From an uncultured Planctomycetia bacterium (GTDB lineage Bacteria > Omnitrophota > Gorgyraeia > 2-02-FULL-51-18): DNA of 54,591 nucleotides. The notes under the pieces are model-generated. The model made no database searches. It had not been told where the DNA came from and saw only the letters and a program-made list of their open reading frames with translations. The stretch is taken from the NCBI GenBank assembly GCA_964431835.1, contig CAYSKO010000011.1, positions 1 through 54,591 of the forward strand, written 5' to 3'. Positions 20,542 through 38,662 of this stretch are shown piece by piece. The position numbers and the translations under genes are program-made. Each line of letters begins with the position of its first letter. Position 1 is the stretch's first letter.

Positions 20542-20566
20542 ACTAGGACCTCTTCTTCGGATTTTT

Positions 20567-20766: not shown

Positions 20767-20806
20767 AAGGGGGCTATGGCTTAAACGCTGTAGCCCCTTT
20801 CTTTTG
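20767..20806 (+). terminator. terminator-like hairpin in the spacer after tRNA-His
   Basis: AAGGGGGCTA (20767-20776) pairs with TAGCCCCTTT (20791-20800) around a 14-nt loop, followed by CTTTTG. Confidence 0.4.
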
Positions 20807-21059: not shown

Positions 21060-21103
21060 CTAATCCGATTCTAATCTTCCTCTAACAGACCCTGCTGTAT
21101 ATT
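21060..21103 (+). promoter_or_regulatory. phased CTAAT-repeat promoter (site 1)
   Basis: CTAAT(21060)-ccgatt-CTAAT(21071)-cttcct-CTAAC(21082)-agaccctgctg-TATATT(21098-21103). It lies 77 nt upstream of the tpsA-like ATG. Confidence 0.65.
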
Positions 21104-21180
21104 AAAATCTAACCCCATATTTATTTCCGTCTTTCAGAAAAATTAACCGAGTTTAGCTAACGTTCCAGCTAAAGGATCCC

Positions 21181-24100: not shown

Positions 24101-26031
24101 ACGCCTCGACGATCACGATGAACTCCCCTGTCAATACGGGCGCCAATACTTTTGCCTTGGCCGGAGATGAAATCAATCTTTTGGGCGCCGTTTCGGGAAC
24201 CGGCAATTTGACGCTGCGGCCGCTATTTTTGAACCGCGGCATGAATATCGGCGGAACCGTCGACAGCGCCACCGCGCTCGACCTCACCCAATCCGACCTT
24301 TCTCAGCTGTCCAACGGGTTTAATTCCCTGACCCTCGGCAACTCCGGCGGTTTCGGGTACGTGAACATTGTCATGCCTGTCACATTTAACGATCCCGTTT
24401 CCCTCCTGTCTTCGGCCGGAGGCGCGATCAACGTGAATGGTCAAATTACTGGCGCCGATAATGCCTCCGTTTTACTGAATGGCGTCGCGACTAATTTAAA
24501 TGCCAACATTCTGACCAATGGCAATGCCGTCACGATCAATGACAATGTCAGACTCCAGCGCGACTTGTCGATTCAAACGACCGGCGGAGGGAGGCCGGGA
24601 GCCAATATCGCCATCAATGGGACAGTAAACGGACTGACATCGGGCCAGGAAGACTTGTCGCTTTTGGCCGGTACGGGCAATATCAATCTGACGGGACAGG
24701 TGGGGTATAATCCGGCCACGGCAGTCGGCACTCGCGTGGGAAGGCTCTCGCTTCAGGGCACGTCGATCACAGCTAATAGCCTCGTTACCGCCTCCTCCAT
24801 CGTTCAATCGCCCGCATCCGGCACGACGACGCTAAGCTCGTTGAATACCAACGGAGCGCTGGGCATCGATCTGAATGGAAATCTTTTTACGCTGAACGGC
24901 CCGATCACGACGTCCGGCGGCGGACCTTTGAGCATCACCAATTCAGGGCTTCTGACCATCGGTTCGGCGGCGGACATGACGTTGGACGGATCGTTTCTAC
25001 AGGATGGAGCGGGACCTGTGCGTCTGGCAGGCGATATCCGCACGACCAATGATAATCTCACGTTTTTAGGTCCCATCACCTTGACCGGCGATCTTTTCCT
25101 TGGCACCGGAACTGGCATCGGAAATATTCTCTTTAACCGTTCTCTCTACGGAACGACTGCCGGACAGGAAGATTTGACGCTCCAAGCCGGCACCGGAAAT
25201 ATCACTTACAACGGCATCGGCGCCGGAGTCGGCCCGTCTCTTGGACGTCTGGTCATCCAAAGCGCGTTTAACGTCACGGCAAATAACGGCCTGTCGGCTT
25301 CTTCGCTATTGCAGACGGCCGGCACCGGAACGACGACGCTGAGCGGCTCCCTTCTGACGACCGGCGGACTGGGCATCGATCTAAACGGAACTAATTTTGT
25401 CCTAAATAATCCGATCACAACCACAGGCGGCGGGCCGCTGAGCATCACCAATTCGGGCACACTGACGATAGGGCTTAACGCCGACATGGCGCTCGATGGC
25501 GCCTTTTTACAGGACGGCACGGGACCTGTACGTCTGGCAGGCGATATCCGAACGACCAATGACAACATCACGTTCCAGCGAGCTGTCACGCTTACCGGCG
25601 ACCTCTTCTTGGGAACTGGCACGGGCCTTGGCAATATTCTTTTTAACAGCACCCTTTATGGGACCACGTCGGGACAGGAAGACCTCACCCTCCAAGCGGG
25701 AACGGGGAATATTACCTTCAACGGGCAAGTCGGTTACAACCCGTCCACCGGTGTTGGTGTTCGTATCGGAAAACTCGTAGTCCAAAGCGTGCAAAATCTC
25801 TTGGCGAACAACATCATTACTGCCGCTTCGATCACCCAGCAGGAAGGCTTCGGCACCTCGACGTTCAGAAACATCCTGAGGACAAACATTTTGCCGGGGA
25901 TCAGCCTTACGGGGAATAACTTCAGCCTGGCCGGCGCTATCGCGACGGCCGGACAGATCGTCATCAATTACCGCGGCACCGTCACACGCACCGGCACCTA
26001 TTCCCCGACGCCGATATTAAGGAGAAGGTAG
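21181..26031 (+). CDS. TpsA/filamentous-haemagglutinin-family giant secreted protein (1616 aa)
   Basis: Signal peptide LVAFFVLFIQTFAYA. The N-terminal TPS (haemagglutination-activity) domain pattern is GKTGTLQ...ITIGEWSKGFDIAQGNTFNAL...SEIFGSLN..GKFFLVNSSGVYFSPTAQVNAAGLVAST. The rest is long G/T/N/S-rich beta-helix repeats. Confidence 0.85.
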   Translation: MRRNPLRAASGLVAFFVLFIQTFAYAEDLPAGYQPVSGSSTYKVEGKTGTLQASDAVTIGEWSKGFDIAQGNTFNALLPANGAHLSRDITQSPSEIFGSLNVPQGKFFLVNSSGVYFSPTAQVNAAGLVASTLDIKNDDFLRQNFKFFQNGSASSLVNEGKITVGAGGLAFLGGSVENKGVLLAREGNVALASGKAMTLSFDPEGLVSVLVDEKLSDVPAPRTDAVKNSGFIRAEGGNVLLTAEAQDGLFASLVNQEGIIEAGSLSNANGKITLVSNISTGVVGNSGILKAPGGSIEVLGEKAGMFAGEATVSGPKAGTINIGGNFQGNGPLRDAQYTTVGKDASLKADSSLGEGGRIIVWSDKATQVYGNLSAKGATKGGFVETSGKDYLYVDKAPEIGSGGTWLLDPRNITITNSTSGTSQSGGTFTPASDNATVSASSINSALNVGTNVIVNTNNSTGFQSGNITVASAISKTSGPDVSLTLTAANNINVNATITSTAAKLNLNLLADDDASGAGGTFVTQRIETNGGDLDSRGRTFRNSGAGEIQMNSGRLNIDAGSSIFIQTPLHSTFRVDLDAAQIEITGSLTDPFDLFINGSNVSAQGVISGLRSVSIHSNELRLGSVTTSGTQNYGPILDNLLENTNILYGNLTASDSIALTGNTILGAPVRIQSPSISFQSALILADSGYYYQFGSLTGPYSLVLDAGTSGGIGFAGSFIEDQWGDYRYTGYMTDIGSLRADSLYFRGSINAQGPIDVRSPNIGVDPGYISPHGSGGGGFTSQGGDIHLGGDLHSDGYGVAIQSNGGDITVDGDVSNSGNYYDTLNVSSGAGDVFFNGSVATGALTVTNTNNLRFGGNVITPEGQTITARTIRTNGTHEVGGFGPHRDFTMTGDILVESNTIFRQTTGNIQIDGTINTATGNESLAMIASQYHGSGEEFYPDGNVTLNGSAGVTTKLNDISISAERAISINRNIHASTITMNSPVNTGANTFALAGDEINLLGAVSGTGNLTLRPLFLNRGMNIGGTVDSATALDLTQSDLSQLSNGFNSLTLGNSGGFGYVNIVMPVTFNDPVSLLSSAGGAINVNGQITGADNASVLLNGVATNLNANILTNGNAVTINDNVRLQRDLSIQTTGGGRPGANIAINGTVNGLTSGQEDLSLLAGTGNINLTGQVGYNPATAVGTRVGRLSLQGTSITANSLVTASSIVQSPASGTTTLSSLNTNGALGIDLNGNLFTLNGPITTSGGGPLSITNSGLLTIGSAADMTLDGSFLQDGAGPVRLAGDIRTTNDNLTFLGPITLTGDLFLGTGTGIGNILFNRSLYGTTAGQEDLTLQAGTGNITYNGIGAGVGPSLGRLVIQSAFNVTANNGLSASSLLQTAGTGTTTLSGSLLTTGGLGIDLNGTNFVLNNPITTTGGGPLSITNSGTLTIGLNADMALDGAFLQDGTGPVRLAGDIRTTNDNITFQRAVTLTGDLFLGTGTGLGNILFNSTLYGTTSGQEDLTLQAGTGNITFNGQVGYNPSTGVGVRIGKLVVQSVQNLLANNIITAASITQQEGFGTSTFRNILRTNILPGISLTGNNFSLAGAIATAGQIVINYRGTVTRTGTYSPTPILRRR
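24646..25800 (+). repeat. internal tandem coding repeat (about 2.3 units of 510-519 nt) in the tpsA-like gene
   Basis: Units start with QEDL(S/T)L.AGTGNI at 24646, 25165 and 25675. Long near-identical stretches occur, e.g. GPVRLAGDIRTTNDN(L/I)TF and GGGPLSITNSG.LTIG in consecutive units. Confidence 0.85.
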
Positions 26032-26043: not shown

Positions 26044-27207
26044 ATGGAAAAAAATCGGGGCTGGTTCGACGAGGCGCTTTATCTCCGCGGTATTGCGGCC
26101 ACTTGTGTCTTGGTTACACACGCCTGGGGCCAGACCGTCAATCACGCCTCTCTACTAACCCCCGCGTATCTCATAGGCGTGACCACTTTCATCCTCACCA
26201 AAGGATTCATGACGTTTATGGCAGTGTCCGGGTTCGTATTGACGAATAAATACGCGCCCGACACCAACTGGATGGAGTTTTACACCAAGCGTCTCAGGGC
26301 GGTCGTGCCGCCTTACATTGCGTTTTCAGCGATCAATGTCGTGGGCCTGGCCTGGGGCACGAACGATTCTCACGGGCTTCAGAGAATCATCAAGGCGATC
26401 GCCAAAGGCGACAGCGCCGCGCATATGTGGTTTTTTGTCAGCATCATTCAGCTCTATCTTCTTTTTCCTCTCATTTATAAGATCTATCTATGGTTCGAAA
26501 GCCGACAGCGGGCGATTTGGCCCGTCGTCATCTCTTTTGCTCTCTTTGCCCTGTGGATCGGCCTCGAAGCCTTTGTACGCGTGATCGGGCCGGATAGGGG
26601 CACTCATCAGGGCTTTGACGCGGCAATCGAAGTTCTGCCGCCCCGCGTTTTCTTGAATGGGCTTCCATTTTTTGTAATGGGGATTTACGCGAGACGCCAC
26701 TATGAAATGATCAAAGAAAAAGTGCTTAGGATGTCTGTCCCCATCTTGTTCATGGCACCGTTTGCGCTTGCGGTCACGGCGGCCCTAATAGAAGCCAATC
26801 GAGCCGCGACTTCTTTGAGAGGTGTCTATATTGAAGAGACCCCAATGGCGCTATTCATAAGCTGCCTGATAAAACCTTTATTGATAGTGCTGCATTTTCG
26901 CTTGGCGATATATTTGACCATGCATCCGTCTTTTGCTTTGGCGAAAATGTTCCGGCATATCGGCGGGCTCTCGTTCGGAATATTTTTGATTCATGTTTTA
27001 GTGCAGGTTCACGTTCAAAGAAGCCTCACTTCACTAGGGTTCGCCTATGACAATATTTTATTGTATCCCGTCTTATTTGCTCTGACACTCTGCCTCTCGT
27101 ATGGAAGTGTATGGCTGCTCAGCAGGCTTCCATACAGCGAGTGGTATATCGGCGTCAAAAAACCTTCCCTTGCGAATGAACGCGTCGTGATAAGAGCCGC
27201 CGCCTAA
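26044..27207 (+). CDS. acyltransferase family 3 (OafA-like) integral membrane protein
   Basis: About 10 predicted TM segments. The N-terminal pattern ...LRGIAATCVLVTHAW... (conserved His) is typical of acyltransferase_3. Confidence 0.75.
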   Translation: MEKNRGWFDEALYLRGIAATCVLVTHAWGQTVNHASLLTPAYLIGVTTFILTKGFMTFMAVSGFVLTNKYAPDTNWMEFYTKRLRAVVPPYIAFSAINVVGLAWGTNDSHGLQRIIKAIAKGDSAAHMWFFVSIIQLYLLFPLIYKIYLWFESRQRAIWPVVISFALFALWIGLEAFVRVIGPDRGTHQGFDAAIEVLPPRVFLNGLPFFVMGIYARRHYEMIKEKVLRMSVPILFMAPFALAVTAALIEANRAATSLRGVYIEETPMALFISCLIKPLLIVLHFRLAIYLTMHPSFALAKMFRHIGGLSFGIFLIHVLVQVHVQRSLTSLGFAYDNILLYPVLFALTLCLSYGSVWLLSRLPYSEWYIGVKKPSLANERVVIRAAA

Positions 27208-27233
27208 AAACAGGCACCGGATGAGCTTGTTTT
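27208..27233 (+). terminator. weak hairpin after the acyltransferase gene
   Basis: AAACAGGC-accggatga-GCTTGTTT (8 bp including one G-T pair), with the T-run forming part of the stem. Confidence 0.25.
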
Positions 27234-27329
27234 AGTCGTCCCTATATATTGTCATTAATCCAACACAGCGCCCGTCTGACTGCAATTAACGGAGTTATCG
27301 CTAAAGCAACAACTGGAAGGAAGGCCTCC

Positions 27330-27594
27330 ATGAAACTCATGCCTCTACGGGCCGCCTCGGGCCTCGTGGCTTTTTTTTGTTTTTTATTCAAACCTTCGCG
27401 TACGCCGGAGACCTCCCCGCCGGCTACCAACCCGTCTCAGGCAATTCGTCTTACAAAATAGAAGGTAAGACCGGGACGCTCCAGGCGTCCGACGCCGTCA
27501 CGATAGGCGAGTGGTCCAAAGGCTTCGACATTGCCCAAGGACACACGTTCAACGCGCTTTTGCCGGCCAACGGAGCGCATCTGTCGCGTGACAT
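27330..27594 (+). pseudogene. frameshifted, 3'-truncated fragment of a second tpsA-like gene
   Basis: nt 27342-27594 align with nt 21193-21446 of the intact gene (mostly identical, net -1 nt around the T-run: T8-GT versus T7-GTGC). The homologous peptide is therefore split over two frames (MKLMPLRAASGLVAFF / FIQTFAYAGDLPAGYQPVSG...HLSRDI). Homology stops exactly where the IS end begins (27595). Confidence 0.85.
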
Positions 27595-27629
27595 TGACGT
27601 TACCCCTCTAAGCGTACAGGTTTTAAAGG
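27595..27629 (-). mobile_element. solo terminal 35 nt (right end, inverted orientation) of the IS3-family element found intact at 33133-34362
   Basis: TGACGTTACCCCTCTAAGCGTACAGGTTTTAAAGG is the exact reverse complement of nt 34328-34362. Identity ends at nt 36. Confidence 0.85.
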
Positions 27630-27896
27630 GTTCGACCAAATCGTCGAAGGCGGCATTCCAAAAAATAGAACCATTTTGATTTGCGGGGGCGCGGGTAGCG
27701 TTGTTTTGATTGTGGCAAATGCCTTAAGATTGCGCAGGATTCCTCTTTGAAAGGAGTCCAATAGGACCCCTCTCAAGTATACGTATCTATTTCCCCGCAT
27801 TAAGCATAGAATTCATCCATCTTGCCTTCCGGTACTTGCCAAGCAGGCCTTTCTTTCCGTTTTCTCCTCCTCCACGCCCGTTAAAAGGAGCTCCAA

Positions 27897-28337
27897 ATGG
27901 CCAAACTCAAAACTCAGCAAACCGAGAGACAAAACAACACGCCGGTCAGCATCGTCTGGGACGGCATCCTGCTTCTGCCGATCTTCGGCATGATCGATTC
28001 CACGAAGGTGCAGAGCACCATGGAAGCGATGCTTGAAAAGATCCTGGAAACCGAAGCGAAGATCATCATTCTGGACATCCTCGGCGTCGCGGCCGTCGAC
28101 AGCGCCGTCGCCAACAACATCGTCAAAATCACCAAAGCCACGAAGCTCATGGGCTGCGACTGCATCGTATCCGGTATTTCGCCCGCCATCGCACAGACCA
28201 TCGTGCATCTGGGCGTCAGCCTCGGCGAGGTCGTGACGAAGGCCACCTTGAAGGACGCGCTCGAACTCGCTTTTGCGGCCTGCTCGCTCGAAGTCCGGGA
28301 CAAGACCAAAGAGCCGACGTTCAGGAAAAAAGAATAG
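27897..28337 (+). CDS. rsbR: RsbR-type STAS protein lacking an N-terminal sensor domain
   Basis: AAGGAG SD sits 7 nt upstream. TPVSIVWDGILLLPIFGMIDSTKVQSTMEAML...IIILDILGVAAVDSAVANNIV...LMGCDCIVSGISPAIAQTIVHLG aligns by eye with the C-terminal STAS domain of B. subtilis RsbR. Only about 30 aa precede the STAS domain. Confidence 0.8.
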   Translation: MAKLKTQQTERQNNTPVSIVWDGILLLPIFGMIDSTKVQSTMEAMLEKILETEAKIIILDILGVAAVDSAVANNIVKITKATKLMGCDCIVSGISPAIAQTIVHLGVSLGEVVTKATLKDALELAFAACSLEVRDKTKEPTFRKKE

Positions 28338-28344
28338 CGATCCG

Positions 28345-28797
28345 GTGAAGATCGCCTACAACTGCCTGATCGTCGATTACAGGGACGAAGTGACCGACCA
28401 GAAGGTTTCTTCGTTTCAAAAGCTCGTTCTCGACCAGGCGCTCCTCGGAAACGTCAAAGGAGTGATCCTGGACGTGTCGGCGGTCACTCTCATGGATTCG
28501 TTCGCGAGCCGGAGCCTTCTCGACACCTGCCGGATGACGAACCTTTTGGGAAAACGCGCGATCGTGGTCGGCATGAAGCCCGCCGTCGTTTTTTCGCTGG
28601 TCGACATGGATGTCGAGCTGAACGGTGTCGAGACGGCCGTAAATGTCGAGAGCGCGATGACTCTTATCGATCCGCCCGCGGACAAAATCATAAAAGACAT
28701 CGGAGAAGAGCTTGACGAAAACGAAGATTCGGAAGAATCCGAAGGCGACGAAAAAGACGCCGTCGCAGATGCCGCCCAAGAGGGCCGGGAAGACTAA
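28345..28797 (+). CDS. rsbS: RsbS-type STAS protein with an acidic roughly 40-aa C-terminal tail
   Basis: Start taken at GTG 28345. YNCLIVDYRDEVTD...VILDVSAVTLMDSFASRSL...GMKPAVVFSLVDM resembles RsbS, including the phospho-Ser context MDSF. The tail is DENEDSEESEGDEKD. Confidence 0.75.
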   Translation: MKIAYNCLIVDYRDEVTDQKVSSFQKLVLDQALLGNVKGVILDVSAVTLMDSFASRSLLDTCRMTNLLGKRAIVVGMKPAVVFSLVDMDVELNGVETAVNVESAMTLIDPPADKIIKDIGEELDENEDSEESEGDEKDAVADAAQEGRED

Positions 28798-29182
28798 GCT
28801 TGTCCGTATCTCCTGCAGGGCGGATATCGAAACGGCCGTCGACTGTTCGATATCATACGCCTCTGAAATAGGTTTTAAGTCCGCCGAGCGATGCATGATC
28901 GGCACGACGGTGTCAGAGCTGGCGACGAATATCTTTCGTTACGCGACTGCGGGTGGTGAGATACGGATCGCGGAGTCTTCGTCGCGAAAGACCGGAATAG
29001 TAATCATCGCAAAAGACGACGGTCCCGGCATCAAGAACCTGAAAAAAGCGATGAAGGACAGCTACACCACGACGGTCGGAAGCCTCGGCATCGGCCTGCC
29101 CGGAGCCCGGAGGCTGATGGACGTATTTCGTATCCAATCGGGCAGAGGCACGGTCGTGACGGTAAAAAAATGGCTCAAGTGA
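28769..29182 (+). CDS. rsbT: RsbT-type serine kinase / switch protein (HATPase_c, anti-sigma regulatory factor family)
   Basis: Start probably at ATG 28769, overlapping the rsbS-like tail. VSELATNIFRYA, IIAKDDGPGI and LGIGLPGARRLMD resemble RsbT N/G boxes. Size is about 137 aa. Confidence 0.75.
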   Translation: MPPKRAGKTKLVRISCRADIETAVDCSISYASEIGFKSAERCMIGTTVSELATNIFRYATAGGEIRIAESSSRKTGIVIIAKDDGPGIKNLKKAMKDSYTTTVGSLGIGLPGARRLMDVFRIQSGRGTVVTVKKWLK

Positions 29183-29772
29183 CCCCAGCCGCCGACTTTC
29201 ATTTTTTAAACAAGCGCTGGTCTCCGGCAGAACCCTGCGCGGATACGGGATTCATTAAGGAAAGCAAGGGATCCGTCTTTTTCGCTCTCGCCGACGTGGC
29301 CGGTCACGGCCGCAGCGCCGCCGTGTTCGTCCCCAAGATTCTGAAGCATTTTAAAAAAAATTACGACAAAGACCTCGTCGATACGATGAACAGCCTTCAC
29401 GACCTCCTGAGGGGGACCCGGGGCGCCGCCGCGGTGGCGGGCCGGATGAATCTGACGGGTGGGCGCGTGGAGTACGTGGGGCTCGGCAACATCTCCGTGC
29501 GGAAGTTCGGAAAAAACCCGGTCAGGAAGGTTTCCAACGAGGGGATCATCGGGTACGTGATCCCCGCGGCGAAAAAAGAAAGCGTTAAGATGTCCAAAAA
29601 GGACGTCCTGTTACTTTATACCGACGGAATCAGGGATCACTTCGATGCGTCGGAATGCCCGTCCGGTTTTTTCGACCTTTCGGCAAAAAAAATAGCGGGC
29701 GGCATCATGAAGTTCTTCAATAAAGGCAATGATGATGCAGGATGCATCGTTTTACGGTATAAAAACGGCTGA
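29170..29772 (+). CDS. rsbX: RsbX-like PP2C/SpoIIE-family phosphatase (200 aa)
   Basis: CADTGF...FFALADVAGHGRSAAV and LLLYTDGIRD match the GD...DG.GHG and ..TDG motifs of SpoIIE/RsbX phosphatases. It overlaps the rsbT-like stop by 13 nt. Confidence 0.7.
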   Translation: MAQVTPAADFHFLNKRWSPAEPCADTGFIKESKGSVFFALADVAGHGRSAAVFVPKILKHFKKNYDKDLVDTMNSLHDLLRGTRGAAAVAGRMNLTGGRVEYVGLGNISVRKFGKNPVRKVSNEGIIGYVIPAAKKESVKMSKKDVLLLYTDGIRDHFDASECPSGFFDLSAKKIAGGIMKFFNKGNDDAGCIVLRYKNG

Positions 29773-30928
29773 GCTCGCCGAGCTGTCGATTTCCGATCAA
29801 AACTCTATCCCGGAGAATCGGAAAAAAATCGACCGCGTGTTCAGCCTCTTCGGCTACGATGTTTTTTTATCGACCTACATCGCCACGCTCTTCTCCGACA
29901 TTTTTCGTGAAATGCTCCTGGGACAGACGCCCAAATTAAAGATCAGCATCCACGGCAAGAAGGAGCCCTATTTCCTCGCGTTTTCCTTTTCGCTGCCCCG
30001 CGGGAGCGGCCTCATGCGGCGCATCAAATGCTCGTTCGACGAGGTCAAGGTCACGGCCGGGCCGAAAGCGAATCACATCCTGGCTTTCTCGCGCCTACAC
30101 GTCAATGGCATGTCCGGCCAACTCCTCAAGGAACTGAGGAAGGCTCTTGAATTCAAGTCGAAGGAAGAACTCTACCGGGAGCTGGATTCGACGTATACAA
30201 AATTGAATTCGTCGAAAAAAATGGCGCAGATGGAGAAGATGAGCGCCGTCGGGACCCTTTCGGCCGGCATCGCCCATGAGCTGAACAATCCCCTCATGGG
30301 AATTATCAATTTCGTGCAGTACTGCCTGAAGCACACTCCGCCGGAGGACAAAAGGCACGGTGTTCTGAGTGACGCCAAGCGAGAGGCGCTTCGCTGCGCG
30401 GAACTCGTTCAGAACATGCTGTCGTTTTCGCGTCTGGAAGAAAGCGGCGTCGAAGAGATTACCATAGAAGAGCACGATATCGGCCCGGTTTTCGACGAAG
30501 CGCTGAAGCTTCTGCTTTACAGGATCGAAAAAGAGAACGTCCAGGTGGTGAGGGAAAAGAGCGCCGCGGTGTCCGTCGCGATGAACAGGAATCAGCTGAA
30601 GCAGGTCCTGCTCAGCGTGACTTCCAACGCCCTCGACGCCATGCGGCTGTCGAAAAAGAAAATACTGACGCTCAAGACGATTGTCAGCGGCAAGGTGGTC
30701 TCCATTTTCATCGGGGATACGGGAACGGGCATTTCCAAGGACGTCCTTTCCCGGATATTCGACCCCTTTTTCACGACCAAGCCGGTCGGGCAGGGCACCG
30801 GCCTGGGACTCACCATCTGCCAGACGATCGTCGGGAAGCACGCCGGGGAAATCAAAGTCAATTCGGAATCCGGTAAAGGAACCGTCTTCGAGATTCTTTT
30901 GCCATTACAGGGGACGCCACATGCCTAA
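29729..30928 (+). CDS. histidine kinase with an unrecognised roughly 170-aa N-terminal domain (HisKA + HATPase_c)
   Basis: H-box GTLSAGIAHELNNPL, N-box SNALDAM, and G-boxes GDTGTGI and GQGTGLGLTIC. No TM segment. The start is uncertain (ATG triplet 29729-29737 overlapping the phosphatase gene). Confidence 0.8.
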   Translation: MMMQDASFYGIKTAELAELSISDQNSIPENRKKIDRVFSLFGYDVFLSTYIATLFSDIFREMLLGQTPKLKISIHGKKEPYFLAFSFSLPRGSGLMRRIKCSFDEVKVTAGPKANHILAFSRLHVNGMSGQLLKELRKALEFKSKEELYRELDSTYTKLNSSKKMAQMEKMSAVGTLSAGIAHELNNPLMGIINFVQYCLKHTPPEDKRHGVLSDAKREALRCAELVQNMLSFSRLEESGVEEITIEEHDIGPVFDEALKLLLYRIEKENVQVVREKSAAVSVAMNRNQLKQVLLSVTSNALDAMRLSKKKILTLKTIVSGKVVSIFIGDTGTGISKDVLSRIFDPFFTTKPVGQGTGLGLTICQTIVGKHAGEIKVNSESGKGTVFEILLPLQGTPHA

Positions 30929-31301
30929 AAAAATACTCGTGATCGACGACGAAGATTCGATCAGAAAATCGTTCGTGCTGGCGCTCGAGGACGTGGACTG
31001 CAAAGTCGACACGGCCTCTTCCGGCGAGGAGGGTGTCAAAAAGACCGCCGCGAAATACGATATCATTTTTTGCGACTTGAAGATGCCGGGGCTGAGCGGC
31101 GTCGAGACGGTGAGATTGATCCGGAAGAAAGACAAGAAGACCCCGATTTTCATTGTCACCGCTTTTTCGAAGGAATTTGCCGAAGGACTAAAAAAACTCG
31201 AAAAGGACGACATCGACTTTCAGTTGCTCAGCAAGCCCCTTTCGAGCGACAAGATCGTGGCGATCGTAGAGGGAACGTTGGAAGGGCTGGCGAGTTATTG
31301 A
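30921..31301 (+). CDS. single-domain response-regulator receiver
   Basis: ILVIDDEDS, IIFCDLKMPG, IFIVTAF and LSKPL give a complete DD/D/T/K set with no output domain. It overlaps the HK stop. Confidence 0.88.
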   Translation: MPKKILVIDDEDSIRKSFVLALEDVDCKVDTASSGEEGVKKTAAKYDIIFCDLKMPGLSGVETVRLIRKKDKKTPIFIVTAFSKEFAEGLKKLEKDDIDFQLLSKPLSSDKIVAIVEGTLEGLASY

Positions 31302-31576
31302 TGAAACATGAATACGCGCTGTACGTCGCAGGAAAAAACGGTACAATGAGCCGAAAAATCATCGCGTGCGTCACCGAGTACCTTAAGAAGAGGCTTGGCA
31401 ACGGCTTTAAGCTCAATATCATCGACGTGATCGACAACCCCGAGACGGCGCTGAAAGAAGGGATTCTGGTCACCCCTTCCTGGGTCCGCACTTCGCCCGC
31501 GCCGAAGAAAAAAATCGTCGGTAATTTTTGCCTGGAAGCCAACGTCTCCCGCGGACTGGACATCCTTTCCTCATGA
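31301..31576 (+). CDS. kaiB: KaiB-family protein (91 aa)
   Basis: YALYVAGKNGTMSRKIIACVTEYLKKRL...FKLNIIDVIDNPETALKEGILVTPSWV...P.KKIVGNF aligns by eye with cyanobacterial KaiB (LKLYVAG.T..S..A...L..IL...Y.L.VIDV..NP.LAE...I.ATPTL). ATG 31301 overlaps the receiver gene's stop. Confidence 0.75.
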   Translation: MKHEYALYVAGKNGTMSRKIIACVTEYLKKRLGNGFKLNIIDVIDNPETALKEGILVTPSWVRTSPAPKKKIVGNFCLEANVSRGLDILSS

Positions 31577-32697
31577 ACCCCACACCCGAAGAAAAAGCGT
31601 TGAATTTCGACCAGATCATTCAGAACAGCTGCGAAGGCATCCTGATCGTCGACGCCGCTGGCCTGATCCGATTCGCCAATCCGGCGGCCTACAGGCTACT
31701 CAGCCATCAGGGCGACCTCATCGACAAGTCGTTCGGCCAACCGTTGAAAGACGACAAAGCCGTCGAGCTGGGCATCATGCGCCTGAACGAAAAGATGGGC
31801 ATCGGCGAGATGCGGATCACGGAAACCATCTGGCAAGGAGAAAAAGCCTCTCTCGTGCTTCTTTTGGACATCACGGAGCTGAAGTACGCCCAGGACGATC
31901 TGCAAAAAATCAACGATCAGCTGGAGCTTAGGGTTAAAGAACGGACCGCGGAGATCCTTCGTTACGTCGAGGAGCTCAAAGGTTCCAACGAACGCCTTTT
32001 CAGCGCGAATAAAGAACTCGAGCAATTTGCCTACGTCGCTTCACACGATCTCCAGGAGCCTCTTCGAAAAATCACCACTTACGGCGACCGTCTGGTGGAC
32101 TACAAATTTACCGACCCCAAGTACAAAGACTATCTCGTCCGCATGACCAAGGCGGCGCTCGGGATGTCGCACCTCGTCGAAAGCCTCCTCGAATTTTCAA
32201 GATTTCCGGACGAGCTGTCTATGGAAGTTTGCGATCTCGGAGAGGTGATTCAGGATGTCATCGATGCGCTGGAGGTGAAGATCGAGCAGACCGGGACGAC
32301 TGTCCAATTCAAGAATCTCCCGAAGGTGCAGGCCAACAAAGCTCAAATGAGCCACCTTTTCCAGAATTTGATCGAGAACTCCATCAAATTCACACGCAAA
32401 GGAATCGCGCCTTTGATCCTACTGGAAAGCGTGCCGGAAAACGACGAGAACGTCGTGATCAGTATCAAGGACAACGGGATCGGCATCGATGAACAATACT
32501 TCGAGGTCGTGTTCATGCCTTTTAAAAGACTTCACGCCCGCTCCGAATACGAAGGTGCGGGCATCGGCCTGTCCATCGTGAAAAAGATCGCCGATAACCA
32601 TAAAGGAAGCGTGCGAATAACCAGCGTCGTCAACGAAGGCTCCGTTTTTATCCTCACGCTACCGGTGGTTCGGGATTTGTCTGAATCGACCTCCTGA
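31573..32697 (+). CDS. PAS-domain histidine kinase
   Basis: ATG 31573 overlaps the kaiB stop (ATGA). PAS region SCEGILIVDAAGLIRFANPAA. H-box FAYVASHDLQEPLRKI, N-box QNLIENSIKF, G-box GAGIGLSI. Confidence 0.88.
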   Translation: MNPTPEEKALNFDQIIQNSCEGILIVDAAGLIRFANPAAYRLLSHQGDLIDKSFGQPLKDDKAVELGIMRLNEKMGIGEMRITETIWQGEKASLVLLLDITELKYAQDDLQKINDQLELRVKERTAEILRYVEELKGSNERLFSANKELEQFAYVASHDLQEPLRKITTYGDRLVDYKFTDPKYKDYLVRMTKAALGMSHLVESLLEFSRFPDELSMEVCDLGEVIQDVIDALEVKIEQTGTTVQFKNLPKVQANKAQMSHLFQNLIENSIKFTRKGIAPLILLESVPENDENVVISIKDNGIGIDEQYFEVVFMPFKRLHARSEYEGAGIGLSIVKKIADNHKGSVRITSVVNEGSVFILTLPVVRDLSESTS

Positions 32698-32738
32698 CAA
32701 TCGCCGCGCGCCTTTTACTCGCTACGCAGTAGATTTAG

Positions 32739-32782
32739 CTAATATTTTCTTAACCTTCGTATAATGGCGTTTAGGCTAATTT
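32739..32782 (+). promoter_or_regulatory. degenerate phased-pentamer promoter (site 5, weaker)
   Basis: CTAAT(32739)-attttc-TTAAC(32750)-cttcgt-ATAAT(32761)-ggcgtttaggc-TAATTT(32777-32782). It lies 45 nt upstream of ATG 32828. Confidence 0.35.
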
Positions 32783-32827
32783 ATTAACGAAAAGCCATAA
32801 TCGAGACAGCAACAGTAATCGGACAAG

Positions 32828-33112
32828 ATGAACAGCGAAAAACCGTTTCTTACGGACGTAATGGAGCTTCGGCGGCGCGCGCTAGCCAAGACTCCCGTAA
32901 AAGTAATTTTTTTGATGGAGACAGCCCAACATAATGCGTTCAGGTCGCCTGGCGCCCCGTCAATTGAGGGGCTGAGGAACAAGCCGACGCGATGGCCCAA
33001 GAAAGAAATTGAGAGCGGGAGAGACGAGGATCGACAAGCGAAGAAGAAACACTTTAATACCCACGGGATATGGGATTCTATTCGCCGACGAGGCACTAGA
33101 CGAGACAAATGA
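32828..33112 (+). CDS. possible small basic hydrophilic protein (94 aa)
   Basis: The ORF follows the site-5 promoter-like element at the same 40-45 nt spacing seen for sites 3 and 4. It has a weak RBS, K/R/E-rich composition and no recognised family, and an antisense ORF of similar size exists. Confidence 0.3.
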   Translation: MNSEKPFLTDVMELRRRALAKTPVKVIFLMETAQHNAFRSPGAPSIEGLRNKPTRWPKKEIESGRDEDRQAKKKHFNTHGIWDSIRRRGTRRDK

Positions 33113-33210
33113 AGAATATGATTGAGCTGTTTTGACCTTACCCCCTAAAACCGTACAGTTGCCAAAGGCGTTCTCCTGGGTGTAAAAGTAAGAATAAGGA
33201 GACGCATCCC

Positions 33211-33492
33211 ATGCCCAAAGGCATCAAGAACACCGAAGAACAGATCATCGCCGTACTAAAACAAGCCGCCGCCGGAGTCCCGATCCAGGACCTCTGCCGC
33301 CAGCAGAATATCTCAAGCGCCACCTTCTACAAGTGGAAGTCGAAGTTTGGCGGGATGGAGGTCTCCGACGCCAGGAGGCTCCGCTCCCTAGAGGATGAGA
33401 ACCGCAAGCTTAAGACCATCGTCGCGGATCTGACGCTGGACAACCAAGCCCTGAGGGCCCTCTCCTCAAAAAACTTCTTAAGCCCAAGGTGA
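33211..33492 (+). CDS. IS3-family transposase OrfA (HTH)
   Basis: EEQIIAVLKQAAAGVPIQDLCRQQNISSATFYKWKSKFGGMEVSDARRLRSLEDEN is the classic IS3/IS407 OrfA with a leucine-zipper tail. Confidence 0.9.
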   Translation: MPKGIKNTEEQIIAVLKQAAAGVPIQDLCRQQNISSATFYKWKSKFGGMEVSDARRLRSLEDENRKLKTIVADLTLDNQALRALSSKNFLSPR

Positions 33493-34334
33493 AGCGCCTG
33501 GCGGCGGGCCGCCTGTGTGAGTCCTTTGGGCTTTCCGTGGGCCGGGCAACGGGCCTCGTGTCTCTAAGACGGGCGATTTTTTATTACAAGCCAAGCGCTG
33601 TCAGGGATGATTCAGGCGTTGTCGCGCGCATGAGGCAGCTCATCGACAAGAATAAGTCGATAGGACTTCCCATGATGCACGTGATTCTAAGAAGAGAAGG
33701 CCTTGTGAAGAATCACAAGCGCACCGAGAGGATCTACCGGGAGCAGAACCTGGCTATCAAGCTCAGGAAGAGCCGTAAGCGCGCCGCGGGGACCCGGATC
33801 GTACTGTCGGCCGCCCGTCGACCCAACGAGCGCTGGTCGATGGACTTTGTGCGGTGCGCTCTCTGGGGTGGCAGGAGATTTAGGATGCTGACGGTTGTCG
33901 ATCAGTTCACGAAGGAGTGTCCTGTAATCGAAGTTGATACTTCCATCACAGGATTCAGAGTTTCAAGGGTTCTTGAATGGCTCTCTATGACTAGAGGGTT
34001 GCCGGAATCCATCACCGTCGACAATGGCCCTGAGTTTGCGGGAATGGCGCTCGACCGGTGGGCCTACACGAAGAACGTAAAGCTGAGCTTCATTCGGCCG
34101 GGCAAGCCGGTTGAGAATGCGTTCATCGAATCCTTCAACGGCAGACTACGGCAGGTATGCTTAAATCAACATCACTTCCTGGACCTTGAGGAAGCCAGGA
34201 AGACGATCGAAGAATGGCGCATGAGCTATAATGACTTCAGGCCTCATCGGTCACTGGATGGATTGACGCCTGAGGGATTTGCTAGGCAGTGGCAGGATAA
34301 AAACGACAACCAAACACCCAAGAATTGCCTTTAA
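33489..34334 (+). CDS. IS3-family transposase OrfB (DDE/rve integrase core), normally expressed as an OrfAB -1 frameshift fusion
   Basis: RPNERWSMDF, ...VDNGPEF... and ...PGKPVENAFIESFNGRLR.ECLN give the DDE triad context. The frame is open upstream to the slippery site. Confidence 0.9.
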   Translation: MKRLAAGRLCESFGLSVGRATGLVSLRRAIFYYKPSAVRDDSGVVARMRQLIDKNKSIGLPMMHVILRREGLVKNHKRTERIYREQNLAIKLRKSRKRAAGTRIVLSAARRPNERWSMDFVRCALWGGRRFRMLTVVDQFTKECPVIEVDTSITGFRVSRVLEWLSMTRGLPESITVDNGPEFAGMALDRWAYTKNVKLSFIRPGKPVENAFIESFNGRLRQVCLNQHHFLDLEEARKTIEEWRMSYNDFRPHRSLDGLTPEGFARQWQDKNDNQTPKNCL

Positions 34335-34459
34335 AACCTGTACGCTTAGAGGGGTAACGTCATGCTGACCGCTGTGATTTTACTGTCGAAGAGAATAGCT
34401 GCCAACTGAGGAGGGAGTATGAAGTCGATCGCCAAGTCAATGAAGGGTGGGGGTGGGCG

Positions 34460-34829: not shown

Positions 34830-35915
34830 ATGCATGATTTCCGCGAACTGCTCGACCTTTCGGTGCTCAACAACACCCTGAAAGACTATCTTGTCGCACT
34901 AGCCTGTCTGGTCGGGCTCGTGCTTGTTTTGTTTTTCTTGAAGCGGGTACTGATCGGGCATTTAAGCCGGTTGGCGACGAAAACGGCCACGGATTTCGAC
35001 GATTTTCTCGTTTCCGTTCTGGCGCAAATCGGCGCCCCCACTTTCATCGCCGTGTCCTTGTACGCCGTGACTCTCCCGCTCGAACTGGAGGGCGCCTCTC
35101 GCCAGTTCGTCCGGTATATCTTCATTTTTGTTCTGACGATCCGGGTGGTGCTCATCCTGCAGGCGATCATCCGTTACGCAGTCGGAAAATCGTACCGGCG
35201 CGCGCGACCCAGCGACCTTGCGGCCGACACGATGGTCAGGAACATTTCGAACGTGTTGGGGGTGGCGGTTTGGGCGTTGGGCGTCGTTTTCATTCTCGAC
35301 AACATGGGATTCGACATTTCGGCGCTGGTGGCCGGCCTGGGAATCGGCGGTATTGCCATCGCGATGGCGGCCCAGGCGATTTTGGGCGACCTCTTCAGTG
35401 CGGTCTCCATTTTCACGGATAAGCCGTTCGAAGTCGGAGACTTTATCATCGTCGACGACCTGCTGGGGACGGTTGAGTACGTGGGCCTGAAAACGACGCG
35501 CATCCGCAGTCTTCACGGCGAACAGCTGATTTTCGCCAATTCGGACCTCACCAAAAGCAGGATCAAAAATTACAAGCGCATGGAAATCCGCCGGATCGCG
35601 TTCAAAATCGGCGTGGTTTACCAGACCCCCGCCGACAAGGTGAAGGCCATCCCCATCCTGATCCGGAAAATTATCGCCGAGACGCAGGATGTGAGGATCG
35701 ACCGCGTTCACTTCCAGAGCTTCGGGGACTTTTCCTTGGTCTATGAGATCGTTTATTTCGTCCTTTCCCCGGACTATAACGTCTACATGGACAAGCAGCA
35801 GGCCATCAACGTCGCCATCAAGGAAGCTTTCGAAAGCGAGGGCATTGAATTCGCTTATCCGACCCAGATGCTGTATCATTCCGGCCTCGCTGCCCCCGCA
35901 GAAATGCGGAAGTGA
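34830..35915 (+). CDS. MscS-family mechanosensitive channel
   Basis: N-terminal TMs, then the pore helix GIGGIAIAMAAQAILGDLFSAVSIF and FEVGDFIIVDDLLGTVEYVGLKTTRIRSLHGEQLIFANS, which is the canonical MscS core. Confidence 0.88.
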   Translation: MHDFRELLDLSVLNNTLKDYLVALACLVGLVLVLFFLKRVLIGHLSRLATKTATDFDDFLVSVLAQIGAPTFIAVSLYAVTLPLELEGASRQFVRYIFIFVLTIRVVLILQAIIRYAVGKSYRRARPSDLAADTMVRNISNVLGVAVWALGVVFILDNMGFDISALVAGLGIGGIAIAMAAQAILGDLFSAVSIFTDKPFEVGDFIIVDDLLGTVEYVGLKTTRIRSLHGEQLIFANSDLTKSRIKNYKRMEIRRIAFKIGVVYQTPADKVKAIPILIRKIIAETQDVRIDRVHFQSFGDFSLVYEIVYFVLSPDYNVYMDKQQAINVAIKEAFESEGIEFAYPTQMLYHSGLAAPAEMRK

Positions 35916-35988
35916 TTGGATAGCCCCACCCTACCCCGCCTCCCTGGCGGATTCGGTAACCGATGTTTCCGATCCTAGAACCCAGCCT

Positions 35989-37662
35989 ATGAAAAAAAAC
36001 AACTCTAGGAAACGGACCGTACTCATCGTTATTTTCTTTTTTTTGATTGTGACCGTGGCAGGTGTTTCGTGGGCGGCCGTCAACAGCGCAAAAGCCTCGG
36101 CGCTGGTCCTTTCGACGCTATTGAGGGCTTCTTTTCCCGTGGAGACGCTTCAGTATGGGCGCGTTACGGGGAGCCTGATCGCGGGACTGACGGCGAGAGA
36201 GGTCCACATAGGGCTCGTCAGTGGAGAATCCGCTTTTATTTCGGAACTTTCTTTGGAACCTGTGCGCCGATGGCCGCTCATAATCCAGCTCAAGGGGAGA
36301 GGAATCGCGCTCAAGACCTTGAGTGCCGGCGATTGCTTTGCGGACGAAGCCCGGTTCGAGGCGGGGCGTCTGGAAGCGGAGGGTGTTCATGCGGGGGCTG
36401 TGTCTTGGGGCGGCGTTGAGGCGGCGATCGCTTTGAAAAGCGTGACGTTGGATTTTTCGGACGCCGAGAACTTGAAAGCAAAAATCGAGTCGGTGCGTCT
36501 CGATTCCAAAGAATTCGGATCCGCCGAGGCCAAAAGCGCGTTTTGGGAATCGTCCGGCGCCCTTCGCTTTTCCGGCATTAAAATCGGACGAATCCGTGAA
36601 CTGCCCGAAGCGGCCGTCGAAATTCAGGGCTTGTCTTTGGACTTGAATTCCGCAATGAAGGTCATGAAGATCGACAACGGGCAGCTCCGTATCGGTTCTT
36701 CGCAGCCGGTTCTTTTCTATGGAAGCGCCGAGTCCGGCGAAGTGGATTTTCGGGTCTTCACCAAGGAGCTGGAGTTGCGGGATCTGCTCCCTATTTTCTC
36801 GGACCACGCGATCCCGAGGCACCTTTCCGGTTTCCTTGAAGACGTCGACCTTGAAATAAGGGGGACTCCGCAGCAACCGCTGATTTCCGGGAGTCTCTAT
36901 GCCCGCAAATTTTCATACCGCCAATTCTATCTCCGCGATTCCGCATGGAAGACGGAAGGGCTGCGTTTTAAAATCAAAAAGGACGCGTTTGCGGTGTCGG
37001 GCCGTCTTTCCGTCGAGGGGGGTCGATTGAGCCGGGGCGACACCGTCGTGACCGTGGAGCCGGGCCGCCTGGATTTTGACGAAAATCCCATGGAACCCAA
37101 GATGAATTTGAACGGAGTCTCGCTTATCGATAAAACCAAGATCCGGCTTTCATTGAGAGGCTCTCCGGAGAAGCCTGATTTTCGCCTGCTCTCCGACCCG
37201 TCTTACCCCGAAGAAAAGCTCGTCGTGATGCTGGCTACCGGACGGATTTGGAGGGGTTCCGAAAAAGCGATTGAGGAGGGAAGACTATCACTAGACGCTG
37301 CCAAGGAATTTTTGGATTATTTTTTGCTCGGTGGTTCGGGGCACCGGATCGCTTCGCGGCTTGGAATCAGGGAAATGTCGCTGGCCGTCACCGAGGAATC
37401 CGAAAGTGTTCGCTTGAAGAAGGAAATATCGAAGAAGGTGGATCTCGGTTATGGGGTCGAAAGAAAAAAGATCGTCGAGAAAGAGCCGTCCGCGGTTGCG
37501 CAATTGGTGGGCCTTGATTACAGGGTATCAAGGAATACGATCGTTTCTGTGGAGGGAAAAATCGCCACGAAGCCCACGCCCTCTCCCGAAGAGGTTTTGG
37601 AGGACAAATCGGCTCCCGCGACCAATAAGAGCGTTCTTGTTAAGGTGGACCGCCGGTTTTAG
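35989..37662 (+). CDS. TamB/DUF490-like translocation-and-assembly-module domain protein (557 aa, short form)
   Basis: Start at ATG 35989 (MKKNNSRKRTVLIVIFFFLIVTVAG is an N-terminal anchor). The C-terminal pattern ...LGYGVERKK...VGLDYRVSRNTIVSVEG resembles the TamB C-terminal DUF490 signature. Confidence 0.55.
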   Translation: MKKNNSRKRTVLIVIFFFLIVTVAGVSWAAVNSAKASALVLSTLLRASFPVETLQYGRVTGSLIAGLTAREVHIGLVSGESAFISELSLEPVRRWPLIIQLKGRGIALKTLSAGDCFADEARFEAGRLEAEGVHAGAVSWGGVEAAIALKSVTLDFSDAENLKAKIESVRLDSKEFGSAEAKSAFWESSGALRFSGIKIGRIRELPEAAVEIQGLSLDLNSAMKVMKIDNGQLRIGSSQPVLFYGSAESGEVDFRVFTKELELRDLLPIFSDHAIPRHLSGFLEDVDLEIRGTPQQPLISGSLYARKFSYRQFYLRDSAWKTEGLRFKIKKDAFAVSGRLSVEGGRLSRGDTVVTVEPGRLDFDENPMEPKMNLNGVSLIDKTKIRLSLRGSPEKPDFRLLSDPSYPEEKLVVMLATGRIWRGSEKAIEEGRLSLDAAKEFLDYFLLGGSGHRIASRLGIREMSLAVTEESESVRLKKEISKKVDLGYGVERKKIVEKEPSAVAQLVGLDYRVSRNTIVSVEGKIATKPTPSPEEVLEDKSAPATNKSVLVKVDRRF

Positions 37663-37843
37663 GCGTTGAGAGGACGGAGAAATACGCTTTCCCTTGCCCA
37701 GTCACAAGTAATTCATTATAATTATTAATATTTAGCAAGTGGGTCTAAGAAAAAGCATATTTCTTAGAGGGCTTTTCAGATGGTCGGGCCGCCGTCTGGT
37801 GTGCATCAAATTACACCAGATGGCGGTCTTCTATATTAAACGG

Positions 37844-38659
37844 ATGAAATTTGAAAGTATTACCGCGCTAATAACTTTTTCATTGATTTGTTTTTTTACG
37901 CCCATCGTTTATGCCGAGGACCTGCTTTACACGGACGAGCAGGCTGATTGCGCCGCTCAAATGATTTTTATGAATGAATGCTCGGGTAAGGAGCAGAATC
38001 TGCTTTATTGGTCGCCCGATGAGGATTTCCCATCTTTGGGAATCGGGCATTTTATTTGGTATCCCGAAAAATTTACAGGGCCTTACTGGGAGTCCTTTCC
38101 GGGCTATCTTGATTTTGCCAAAGAGATCGGTCTTAAAATGCCGGATTGGATTGAAGCCTTGCCTGACAAGCGCGCTCCGTGGAAAAGCCGGGAGGAGTTT
38201 GAGCAGGATCTCGGTAGCGATAGAGTGGGCGAGCTTCGTCAGTTTTTAAGCCACACCAAGCGCGAGCAGGCCCATTACATCCTTCGCCGATTCCGCAAGG
38301 TTTTTCCTCAAATCCTGAACGACTTGGATGAGGCGGACCGTCAACCGGTTCAAGAGAAATACGATCTATTGATGATGCGGCATGAGCGGGCATTTGCGAT
38401 GATCGATTACGTTAATTTTAAAGGGGAAGGGTTTCGTGTGGACGCGCGATATGAAGGGGTTGGCTGGGGATTGGCCCAGGTTCTTCTGGAGATGCGGGTG
38501 CCCGATGATCCCGACAACACCCTGGCTGAGTTTATTCTCGCGGCTGAACGTGTTCTTGAACGGCGCGTTAGCCATGCGCCAAAACCCGAACTGGAAGCCA
38601 AGTGGTTGCCGGGTTGGAAAAATCGTGTCCGTGGTTATAATAAGATTAATTGTAAATAA
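37844..38659 (+). CDS. secreted hypothetical protein (271 aa)
   Basis: Start at ATG 37844 (signal peptide ITALITFSLICFFTPIVYA). No family recognised. Its stop lies 3 nt before the sensor-OtsA gene. Confidence 0.55.
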   Translation: MKFESITALITFSLICFFTPIVYAEDLLYTDEQADCAAQMIFMNECSGKEQNLLYWSPDEDFPSLGIGHFIWYPEKFTGPYWESFPGYLDFAKEIGLKMPDWIEALPDKRAPWKSREEFEQDLGSDRVGELRQFLSHTKREQAHYILRRFRKVFPQILNDLDEADRQPVQEKYDLLMMRHERAFAMIDYVNFKGEGFRVDARYEGVGWGLAQVLLEMRVPDDPDNTLAEFILAAERVLERRVSHAPKPELEAKWLPGWKNRVRGYNKINCK

Positions 38660-38662
38660 CCC

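Follow-up and report, generated by a model that had tools for sequence, protein, structure and literature searches.

Stressosomes are built around a pseudo-icosahedral STAS core of ~1.8 MDa that sequesters RsbT. KaiB is a textbook metamorphic protein, which in its fold-switched state binds the receiver-like PsR domain of CikA, and the N-terminal domain of SasA is KaiB-like. To our knowledge, the only role described for bacterial KaiB is that of a partner of KaiC. Here, an operon is analysed in which a stressosome module, two histidine kinases (HK1 and HK2), a receiver-only response regulator (RR) and a KaiB-family protein are encoded together. The operon spans positions 27897-32697 on the + strand of a 54.6-kb stretch of DNA from an uncultured bacterium (contig CAYSKO010000011.1, 54,591 nucleotides, hereafter the window). 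Stressosome modules that feed two-component systems are already known (Pane-Farre et al. 2005; Heinz et al. 2022, PMC9237108). Most of the proteins encoded downstream of rsbRSTX, including VvD1, lack the RsbU_N domain, and an interaction between RsbT and VvD1 could not be shown; among the domains of the eleven downstream types that have been listed, KaiB does not occur (Heinz et al. 2022, PMC9237108). We give an even chance to the reading that the operon described here encodes a stressosome feeding a two-tier two-component relay, with the KaiB-family protein as a built-in adaptor.

The eight open reading frames (ORFs) of the operon all have the same direction, and their junctions consist of overlaps of 1-44 nt or a 7-nt gap (Table 1). 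An earlier reading of the window, made from the sequence alone (the sequence-only reading), had described a single operon of eight genes with overlapping junctions, and the ORFs and coordinates were found as it gave them. This includes the translational coupling of kaiB and the HK2 gene by an ATGA overlap. For rsbS, a GTG start was chosen through alignment with orthologues, the mechanically called ORF beginning at 28273. An AAAGGAG ribosome-binding site is located upstream of rsbR. No RNA element was found in an Rfam scan of 26900-33300, and scans for promoters and terminators yielded weak consensus matches only, so that the boundaries of the operon are not clearly marked. The best sigma-70-like match of the region (10/12, a consensus match only) is found at 31395-31422, inside kaiB and upstream of the HK2 gene.

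The first four genes encode proteins of the RsbR, RsbS, RsbT and RsbX types, an assignment proposed before and on which the STAS, RsbS and RsbT comparisons agree; the alternative of SpoIIAA/AB-type proteins does not fit these matches. Residues 13-133 of RsbR can be aligned to RsbR of Vibrio vulnificus, a globin-coupled protein, over its STAS domain (7o0i_B residues 177-297) with an E-value of 1e-43 and 151.8 bits, and RsbR of Listeria is matched with an E-value of 1e-22 and 83 bits. The equivalents of both phospho-sites are retained, as a VDS motif, with Ser at the position equivalent to T171, and as the threonine of an AQT motif (B. subtilis T171/T205 numbering). Just ~13-21 residues precede the STAS domain and an N-terminal sensor (turret) domain is absent, which bears out the earlier description of this RsbR as sensor-less. 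Short RsbR proteins form a conserved class, with 143-154 aa in L001, L004, L006, L007, L090 and L172 (handles of related loci, Table 1), and 19 of the 67 evaluable metagenome relatives of RsbR have the short form. RsbS has its best match in the PDB in B. subtilis RsbS (6jhk, E 3e-17), followed by RsbS of Listeria, Moorella and Vibrio among the other top matches, and keeps the serine of the DSF motif (the Ser59 phospho-site). Its acidic C-terminal tail, previously noted as unusual, comprises 43 residues of which 19 are Asp or Glu, and such tails are also present in L001, L004, L006 and L007. Across these loci, the short RsbR and the acidic tail of RsbS are traits that the clade has kept, rather than defects of this genome.

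RsbT is 44% identical (E 2e-32) to what we take to be the B. subtilis RsbT sequence. In the alignment of RsbT orthologues, no variation is seen in the N-box Asn or in the DxGPG and GxG motifs. A sequence match to the protein was not obtained in the PDB, and the NCBIfam models gave no discriminating RsbT match, with SpoIIAB scoring best but under its cutoff (43.6 bits) and RsbW scoring 15.7 bits. The RsbX gene directly follows rsbT, as in rsbRSTX modules, and its product shares 30-56% identity with the orthologues of related loci.

An RsbR without a turret need not make the system non-functional. Recent work on B. subtilis makes the case that RsbT itself, and not the N-terminal domains of RsbR, may be the stress sensor (PMC11821858). 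In addition, sensor-bearing RsbR paralogues may exist elsewhere in the genome. Short and sensor-bearing RsbR proteins can share one locus, since L004 contains both: a short RsbR heads the operon, and a protoglobin-STAS gene (9565-10449) is located after the RR gene. In the rsbRSTX loci L119, L141, L146, L149, L151, L152 and L158, a second, long RsbR-like STAS protein (~410-600 aa) is encoded divergently on the minus strand, just upstream of rsbR.

The part of the operon beyond rsbX starts with HK1, whose full-length orthologues share 33-61% identity. Pfam gives no match for residues 1-170, RsbU_N (PF08673) included. An AlphaFold2 model of residues 1-137, built with 12 orthologues, reached a pLDDT of 84.3 and a pTM of 0.78 and has the predicted topology beta-alpha-alpha-beta-beta-alpha-beta-beta-alpha. 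In a Foldseek search of this model against the PDB, the top 19 matches were all RsbW, SpoIIAB or UsfX (E from 6e-5, TM ~0.55). This agrees with a profile alignment by hhalign, in which the domain was matched to the RsbT orthologues of the same operons with a probability of 84% and an E-value of 7.7e-6 over 49 columns. The only invariant residues in the alignment of the domain are L16, S56 and R60, and none of the N-box Asn, DxGxG or GxG motifs is conserved. The N-terminal domain of HK1 is best described, on its modelled structure, as a degenerate GHKL pseudokinase fold of the RsbW/SpoIIAB/RsbT type. It cannot act as a kinase, because the conserved N-box Asn and the glycine motifs are missing.

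The distribution of this domain was surveyed in 80 metagenome loci anchored on RsbR, in 43 of which the gene after rsbX is visible. The pseudo-GHKL domain forms the start of the post-rsbX gene product in 38 of these 43 loci. Besides the plain kinase, seven output types carry it, with all of their N-terminal parts blank in Pfam; the outputs comprise a hybrid HisKA-HATPase-REC-Hpt kinase, GGDEF-EAL, HK-GGDEF, PP2C and PP2C-HATPase_c_2 proteins, and adenylate/guanylate cyclases (two loci). In two of the loci (L126, 9729-11594; L161, 9854-11626), the post-rsbX protein consists of the pseudo-GHKL domain, PP2C and a full HATPase_c_2 domain. By its domains, it is a fusion of an RsbU-like phosphatase with an RsbW-like kinase, which would make it a compact partner-switching output. 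That effectors of so many kinds begin with the same domain when encoded after rsbX strongly supports its role as a general stressosome output module, through which the post-rsbX effectors would take up their input signal.

These results modify a proposal of the sequence-only reading, namely that the N-terminal domain of HK1 is a docking site for RsbT analogous to RsbU_N. The idea of a stressosome-signal input gains from the distribution of the domain, whereas the likeness to RsbU_N does not hold, the fold being that of a pseudo-GHKL protein. GHKL anti-sigma kinases are dimers, so that heterodimerisation of the HK1 domain with released RsbT would fit the fold. Alternatively, the domain may bind to the STAS domains of RsbS or RsbR in competition with RsbT, which fits the predicted fold as well.

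The RR encoded after HK1 is the best-conserved partner of this kinase, with 40-76% identity over all related loci. It retains D9/D10, D52, T80 and K104, the complete DD/D/T/K set with which it had been credited. No likeness specific to clock proteins was seen in this RR, whose matches are to generic CheY-like proteins. The same applies to HK2, for which the named matches are ordinary sensor kinases and bacteriophytochromes and the best match (8f71_A) was deposited merely as 'Histidine kinase'. No regulator targeted by HK2 is encoded in the operon.

The protein encoded between the RR and HK2 belongs to the KaiB family, as had been predicted for this 91-aa product. It scores 53.1 bits against PF07689 (cutoff 27) and matches KaiB of T. 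elongatus with an E-value of 4e-10; PDB entries 5jyv and 6x61 are among the structures matched. It remains under the cutoffs of the NCBIfam equivalogs for circadian KaiB (NF006798, 41.8 versus 110; TIGR02654, 38.2 versus 145.3). The search for relatives relied on exhaustive and profile searches, since a word-index search gave only two; the profile included a T. elongatus row and its matches were dominated by cyanobacterial KaiB. Among 1.8 billion representatives, ~1000 family members were found, of which one alone exceeds 50% identity.

The gene order of the operon, including kaiB, is found again in no fewer than eight further distinct loci (Table 1), all from uncultured bacteria including Aminicenantes. 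A comparison of gene neighbourhoods, as suggested earlier, thus shows that the order stressosome-HK-RR-KaiB-PAS-HK is conserved in relatives. Its presence in loci independent of one another means that these genes are not neighbours by chance. The kinases adjacent to KaiB differ in their cores, which are of the HisKA type in the window and in L095, HisKA_3 with a REC domain in L090 and HisKA_2 in Aminicenantes. Their PAS domains share 55, 46, 29 and 29% identity with that of HK2 in the window. Because the PAS domain is kept throughout while the kinase core differs, the conserved unit is RR-KaiB-PAS, to which a variable kinase core is attached. In sister loci without KaiB, rsbRSTX-HK1-RR is followed by other genes (Table 1). 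L006 and L091 have a LuxR-type RR after the HisKA_3 kinase, and the contig of L001 ends before that position. A further 80 loci, obtained from a scan of species genomes with the full-length HK1 alignment, did not contain the system, the motifs picked being those of generic kinases.

The conservation also bears on the possibility of an unspecific thioredoxin-fold or redox protein in place of KaiB, or of an accidental adjacency produced through rearrangement mediated by an insertion sequence (IS). Weak matches to thioredoxins (E 0.006-0.6) would agree with the former and the terminal repeats of an IS3 element bracketing the operon with the latter. However, the KaiB scores lie five to seven orders of magnitude above those of thioredoxin, thioredoxins reaching E 0.006 at best compared to 4e-10 for KaiB, a CxxC motif is absent from the protein, and the gene order is kept in at least eight other loci without this IS context. 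Conservation and profile scores effectively refute this explanation, which we consider extremely improbable.

From these data, we infer the protein-protein contacts, the direction of phosphate flow and any timing role for KaiB as follows. The short RsbR and RsbS would form the STAS core, with RsbT as the switch kinase and RsbX as the reset phosphatase, roles assigned by sequence similarity. HK1 would take up the stressosome signal via its pseudo-GHKL domain, for which the fold and the distribution point to such an input and a stressosome protein is the presumed partner. Its co-conservation with the RR suggests that HK1 phosphorylates this receiver. The RR would subsequently act on HK2, with KaiB and the PAS domain of this kinase as intermediaries and without KaiC. 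This last step is proposed because the RR-KaiB-PAS cassette is conserved and translationally coupled, because in sister loci the RR gene directly precedes a second kinase that has no input domain, and because fold-switched KaiB is known to bind the PsR domain of CikA. The relay is also in line with the kinase or PAS protein encoded after KaiB in KaiC-linked loci, and with the purely stressosome-linked context, where known, of the clade to which KaiB of the window belongs. A wider hypothesis, which we put forward tentatively, is that a KaiB lineage has left the KaiC clock and may now serve as a KaiC-independent, possibly slowly fold-switching adaptor between a phosphorylated receiver and a PAS kinase below a stressosome, and that stressosomes outside the Bacillales would signal to their effectors via a formerly unassigned pseudo-RsbT/RsbW domain and not via RsbU_N.

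Several points weigh against the relay with KaiB as an adaptor. In the AlphaFold2 model of the KaiB-family protein (pLDDT 65.4), only the N-terminal beta-alpha-beta is confident, and residues 50-78, the fold-switching half, have a low-confidence pLDDT of 47-66; a hint of the fold-switched, thioredoxin-like topology comes from the C-terminal helix (79-90), in a part where the model is unreliable. In a distance tree, KaiB of the window groups with those of L090, L007 and L172 and with P0124, in a clade that is exclusively stressosome-linked as far as the gene context is known, while the four KaiBs from Aminicenantes form a second clade nearer to canonical KaiB (distance ~0.5). The two stressosome-linked clades are not sisters, and the subclades are 30-35% identical. 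More than one recruitment is therefore conceivable, and the KaiB cassette may have been acquired more than once, although proteins of 90 aa limit the resolution of such a tree. A single receiver beside two kinases would also suit a pair of which one member phosphorylates and the other dephosphorylates this RR. Finally, KaiB has been reported only where full-length KaiC also occurs (Schmelling et al. 2017, PMC5520375), and a kaiC gene could be located beyond the 54.6-kb contig.

The last two points favour a different explanation, in which KaiB works with a KaiC encoded elsewhere and the operon serves a KaiBC hourglass or clock as an input or output branch, with KaiB shuttling between KaiC and the RR or HK2. 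The layout of KaiC-linked loci, where KaiB is followed by a kinase or PAS gene, and the rather small distance (~0.5) of the Aminicenantes proteins from canonical KaiB are also in line with it. Searches with Pfam (~45 ORFs of the window) and with local hidden Markov models and a Walker-A scan (all ORFs of the window) detected no KaiC, KaiA, RsbU/V/W, sigma factor or second STAS gene, in accordance with the earlier statements that the window contains neither KaiC nor KaiA and that no gene for RsbU/V/W or a sigma factor follows the module. Likewise, no called PF06745/KaiC gene was present within 7-8 kb in nine stressosome-linked loci with KaiB, whereas the same approach found KaiC in the control L175. 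As further controls, three of the four annotated plasmid KaiB genes adjoin kaiC, as in L175, and in three of the four kaiC-linked loci a kinase, RR-kinase or PAS gene is located after kaiB; in the fourth (Aquisphaera), a gene for an ATP-binding protein precedes kaiB. KaiB of the window is, moreover, a divergent outlier, given its single relative above 50% identity and scores far under the circadian equivalog cutoffs. A KaiC partner encoded elsewhere is thus unlikely, though it deserves to be kept in mind. In Hymenobacter tibetensis plasmid NZ_CP094675.1 (L168, 4180-5264), a KaiB-family gene comes after one for a receiver-only RR; the opposite strand encodes a large PAS protein, and there is no kaiC within 5 kb. 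The RR-KaiB pairing may, from this example, occur outside stressosome loci.

The overlap of 4 nt between kaiB and the HK2 gene, together with matches of both products to the SasA-type model PRK09303 (KaiB, E 6.5e-5; HK2, 107 bits), could instead reflect a split SasA-like kinase, in which KaiB, as a subunit of HK2, does no more than dock this kinase, for instance onto the STAS core or HK1. The RR would then not be bound by KaiB but be used in common by HK1 and HK2, with kinase activity in one and phosphatase activity in the other, which is compatible with the single receiver for two kinases in the operon. However, the match of the KaiB-family protein to the SasA N-domain is not significant (E 0.31) compared to that of true KaiBs (4e-10), and KaiB is not fused to the kinase. 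Furthermore, the core of the KaiB-adjacent kinase is not conserved, in contrast to the PAS domain and the preceding RR, and in sister loci the RR precedes a kinase without an input domain. We therefore rate a split SasA-like kinase as improbable and retain the relay with KaiB between the RR and HK2 as the working model.

Table 1. Features of the operon and its flanks in the window, and related loci outside it.
Feature or locus	Position or source	Strand	Details
rsbR (g1), short RsbR-type STAS protein	27897-28337	+	146 aa; Pfam STAS residues 22-120
rsbS (g2), RsbS-type STAS protein, acidic C-terminal tail	28345-28797	+	150 aa; Pfam STAS
rsbT (g3), RsbT-type GHKL serine kinase	28769-29182	+	137 aa; Pfam HATPase_c_2; 29-nt overlap with g2
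rsbX (g4), RsbX-type single-domain PP2C phosphatase	29170-29772	+	200 aa; Pfam SpoIIE 46 bits; 13-nt overlap with g3
HK1 (g5), soluble kinase	29729-30928	+	399 aa; 44-nt overlap with g4
HK1 N-terminal domain, residues 1-137, predicted pseudo-GHKL	29729-30139	+	AlphaFold2, Foldseek and hhalign
HK1 C-terminal catalytic core	30140-30928	+	Pfam HisKA 175-238 (His183), HATPase_c 287-394
RR (g6), receiver-only	30921-31301	+	126 aa; Pfam Response_reg 78.5 bits; 8-nt overlap with g5
kaiB (g7), KaiB-family protein	31301-31576	+	91 aa; PF07689; 1-nt overlap with g6
HK2 (g8), PAS-HisKA-HATPase_c kinase	31573-32697	+	374 aa; Pfam; 4-nt ATGA overlap with g7
Solo 35-bp terminal inverted repeat	27595-27629		100% complementary to 34328-34362, the IS3 right end
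IS3-family insertion sequence	33134-34362	+	orfA 33211-33492, orfB 33489-34334; Pfam HTH_Tnp_1, rve/rve_3
L002/L003	Aminicenantes GCA_011771225.1		Order including KaiB
L005	JGI metagenome		Contig starts at HK1; visible part HK1-RR-KaiB-HK2 only
L007 = L095	JGI and ENA metagenomes		Order including KaiB
L090	ENA metagenome		Order including KaiB; RsbR 74% identical to that of the window
L172	GCA_034680565.1		Order including KaiB
L173	Aminicenantes chromosome CP070627.1		Order including KaiB
L174	JGI metagenome		Order including KaiB
L001, L006/L089, L091			rsbRSTX-HK1-RR, then 229-266-aa HisKA_3 kinase without input domain
L088, L092			rsbRSTX-HK1-RR sisters; two receiver proteins
L004			rsbRSTX-HK1-RR sister; globin-RsbR after RR

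The IS3 element is situated directly downstream of the operon, with an imperfect left end at ~33134 and its right terminal repeat at 34328-34362. Together with the solo copy of this repeat upstream, a perfect 35-bp inverted repeat brackets the operon and the IS3 transposase as a unit of 6.77 kb. Transposition of the bracketed segment as a unit was rejected, as the repeats are not flanked by a target-site duplication (flanks …ACAT and TGCT…); mobilisation of the whole may still be possible. Just upstream of the operon, 27321-27594 repeats part of the 5'-end (21172-21446) of a gene for a 1616-aa adhesin with a TPS domain, at 75-88% identity. This partial copy is truncated by the solo IS repeat, where it ends precisely, which points to past rearrangement. 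The adhesin gene itself contains tandem-like internal repeats at 24847-25574, with a spacing of 510 nt and 72-82% identity.

The GC content falls from ~0.63 to ~0.55 near 20 kb (about 17600-21200), where genes for tRNA-Pro, tRNA-Arg and tRNA-His mark the boundary and the adhesin gene begins right after tRNA-His. Downstream of the IS (34830-54021), a run of genes encodes an MscS channel, a TamB-like protein, a GT20 trehalose-6-phosphate synthase, a BON protein, a BON-MscS fusion, DUF2254, BrkB, a GH15 glucoamylase/trehalase, a glucose dehydrogenase, an Fe/Mn superoxide dismutase, a baeRF-family protein and an Nramp transporter. The stress pathway may have targets or companions among these genes of osmotic and oxidative stress. 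In its high-GC left part (830-9498), the window encodes a MoxR AAA ATPase, DUF58, VWA/BatA, VWA-TPR and BatD-TPR-SH3 proteins, as in an operon of the Bat aerotolerance type. The repeats, the drop in GC, the tRNA boundary and the run of stress genes fit an island-like, horizontally exchanged stress locus, and from the island-like GC/tRNA boundary, the DNA that carries the stressosome operon may have been gained by horizontal transfer.

In the literature searched, which is incomplete, no paper names both the stressosome and KaiB, and the top-ranked papers on KaiB with RsbR/S/T do not contain KaiB, in keeping with the earlier remark that no stressosome-KaiB circuit was known to have been described. 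The few papers that name a stressosome and a pseudokinase do not appear to concern the N-terminal domain of HK1. Neither the KaiB link nor the assignment of this domain was found described within that coverage. A conserved KaiB in a stressosome/two-component operon would give KaiB a second, KaiC-independent job and, if this is true, provide a simple system for fold switching outside the clock, for example as a delay or memory in a stress response. For the signalling of Gram-negative-type stressosomes to outputs other than sigma factors, the pseudo-GHKL domain offers a concrete and testable docking module.

The closest described relative of the first part of the operon is the V. vulnificus-type module. 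Both share the order rsbR-rsbS-rsbT-rsbX, with rsbX right after rsbT and a histidine kinase next, both lack RsbU/V/W and SigB, the downstream proteins are without RsbU_N in either case and, as mentioned above, the STAS domains of RsbR are very similar. However, RsbR of the window lacks a sensor domain, be it a globin or another one, HK1 is a plain kinase of 399 aa compared to the >1000-aa kinase VvD1, which is linked to c-di-GMP, and the genes that come next here encode a receiver-only RR, KaiB and a PAS kinase. With RsbU of B. subtilis, the effectors described here have in common that a modular N-terminal input domain is placed on varied catalytic outputs after the stressosome genes, although RsbU_N is helical and the HK1 domain is an alpha/beta pseudo-GHKL fold that is not matched by PF08673. 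The fold of this domain is shared with the anti-sigma kinases RsbW and SpoIIAB, as seen from its similarity (TM ~0.55) to 6m36, 1th8 and 8ih8, which are complexes with STAS partners or sigma factors. In contrast to these kinases, the domain lacks ATP-binding motifs, is fused to a histidine-kinase core and is not accompanied by a sigma factor.

The second part of the operon is comparable to the kaiC-kaiB-kinase operons outside Cyanobacteria (Falsirhodobacter, Pararhizobium plasmids, L175), in which a KaiB gene is likewise followed, often with an overlap, by a gene for a sensor kinase, an RR-kinase or a PAS protein. Here, the place of kaiC is taken by a receiver-only RR, which would be fed by the stressosome and HK1. 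In the arrangement of its genes, the cassette is thus similar to a kaiC-kaiB-kinase operon at its output end, with the receiver in KaiC's place. The cyanobacterial CikA/SasA output offers a similar combination, in that a KaiB-fold module is coupled to a receiver-fold domain and a histidine kinase, a coupling that in the present operon would be made by interaction. The receiver of the window differs from that system in being a protein of its own whose phospho-acceptor set is intact, KaiB is unfused, and the ring of KaiC, the platform of the cyanobacterial output, has no known counterpart here.

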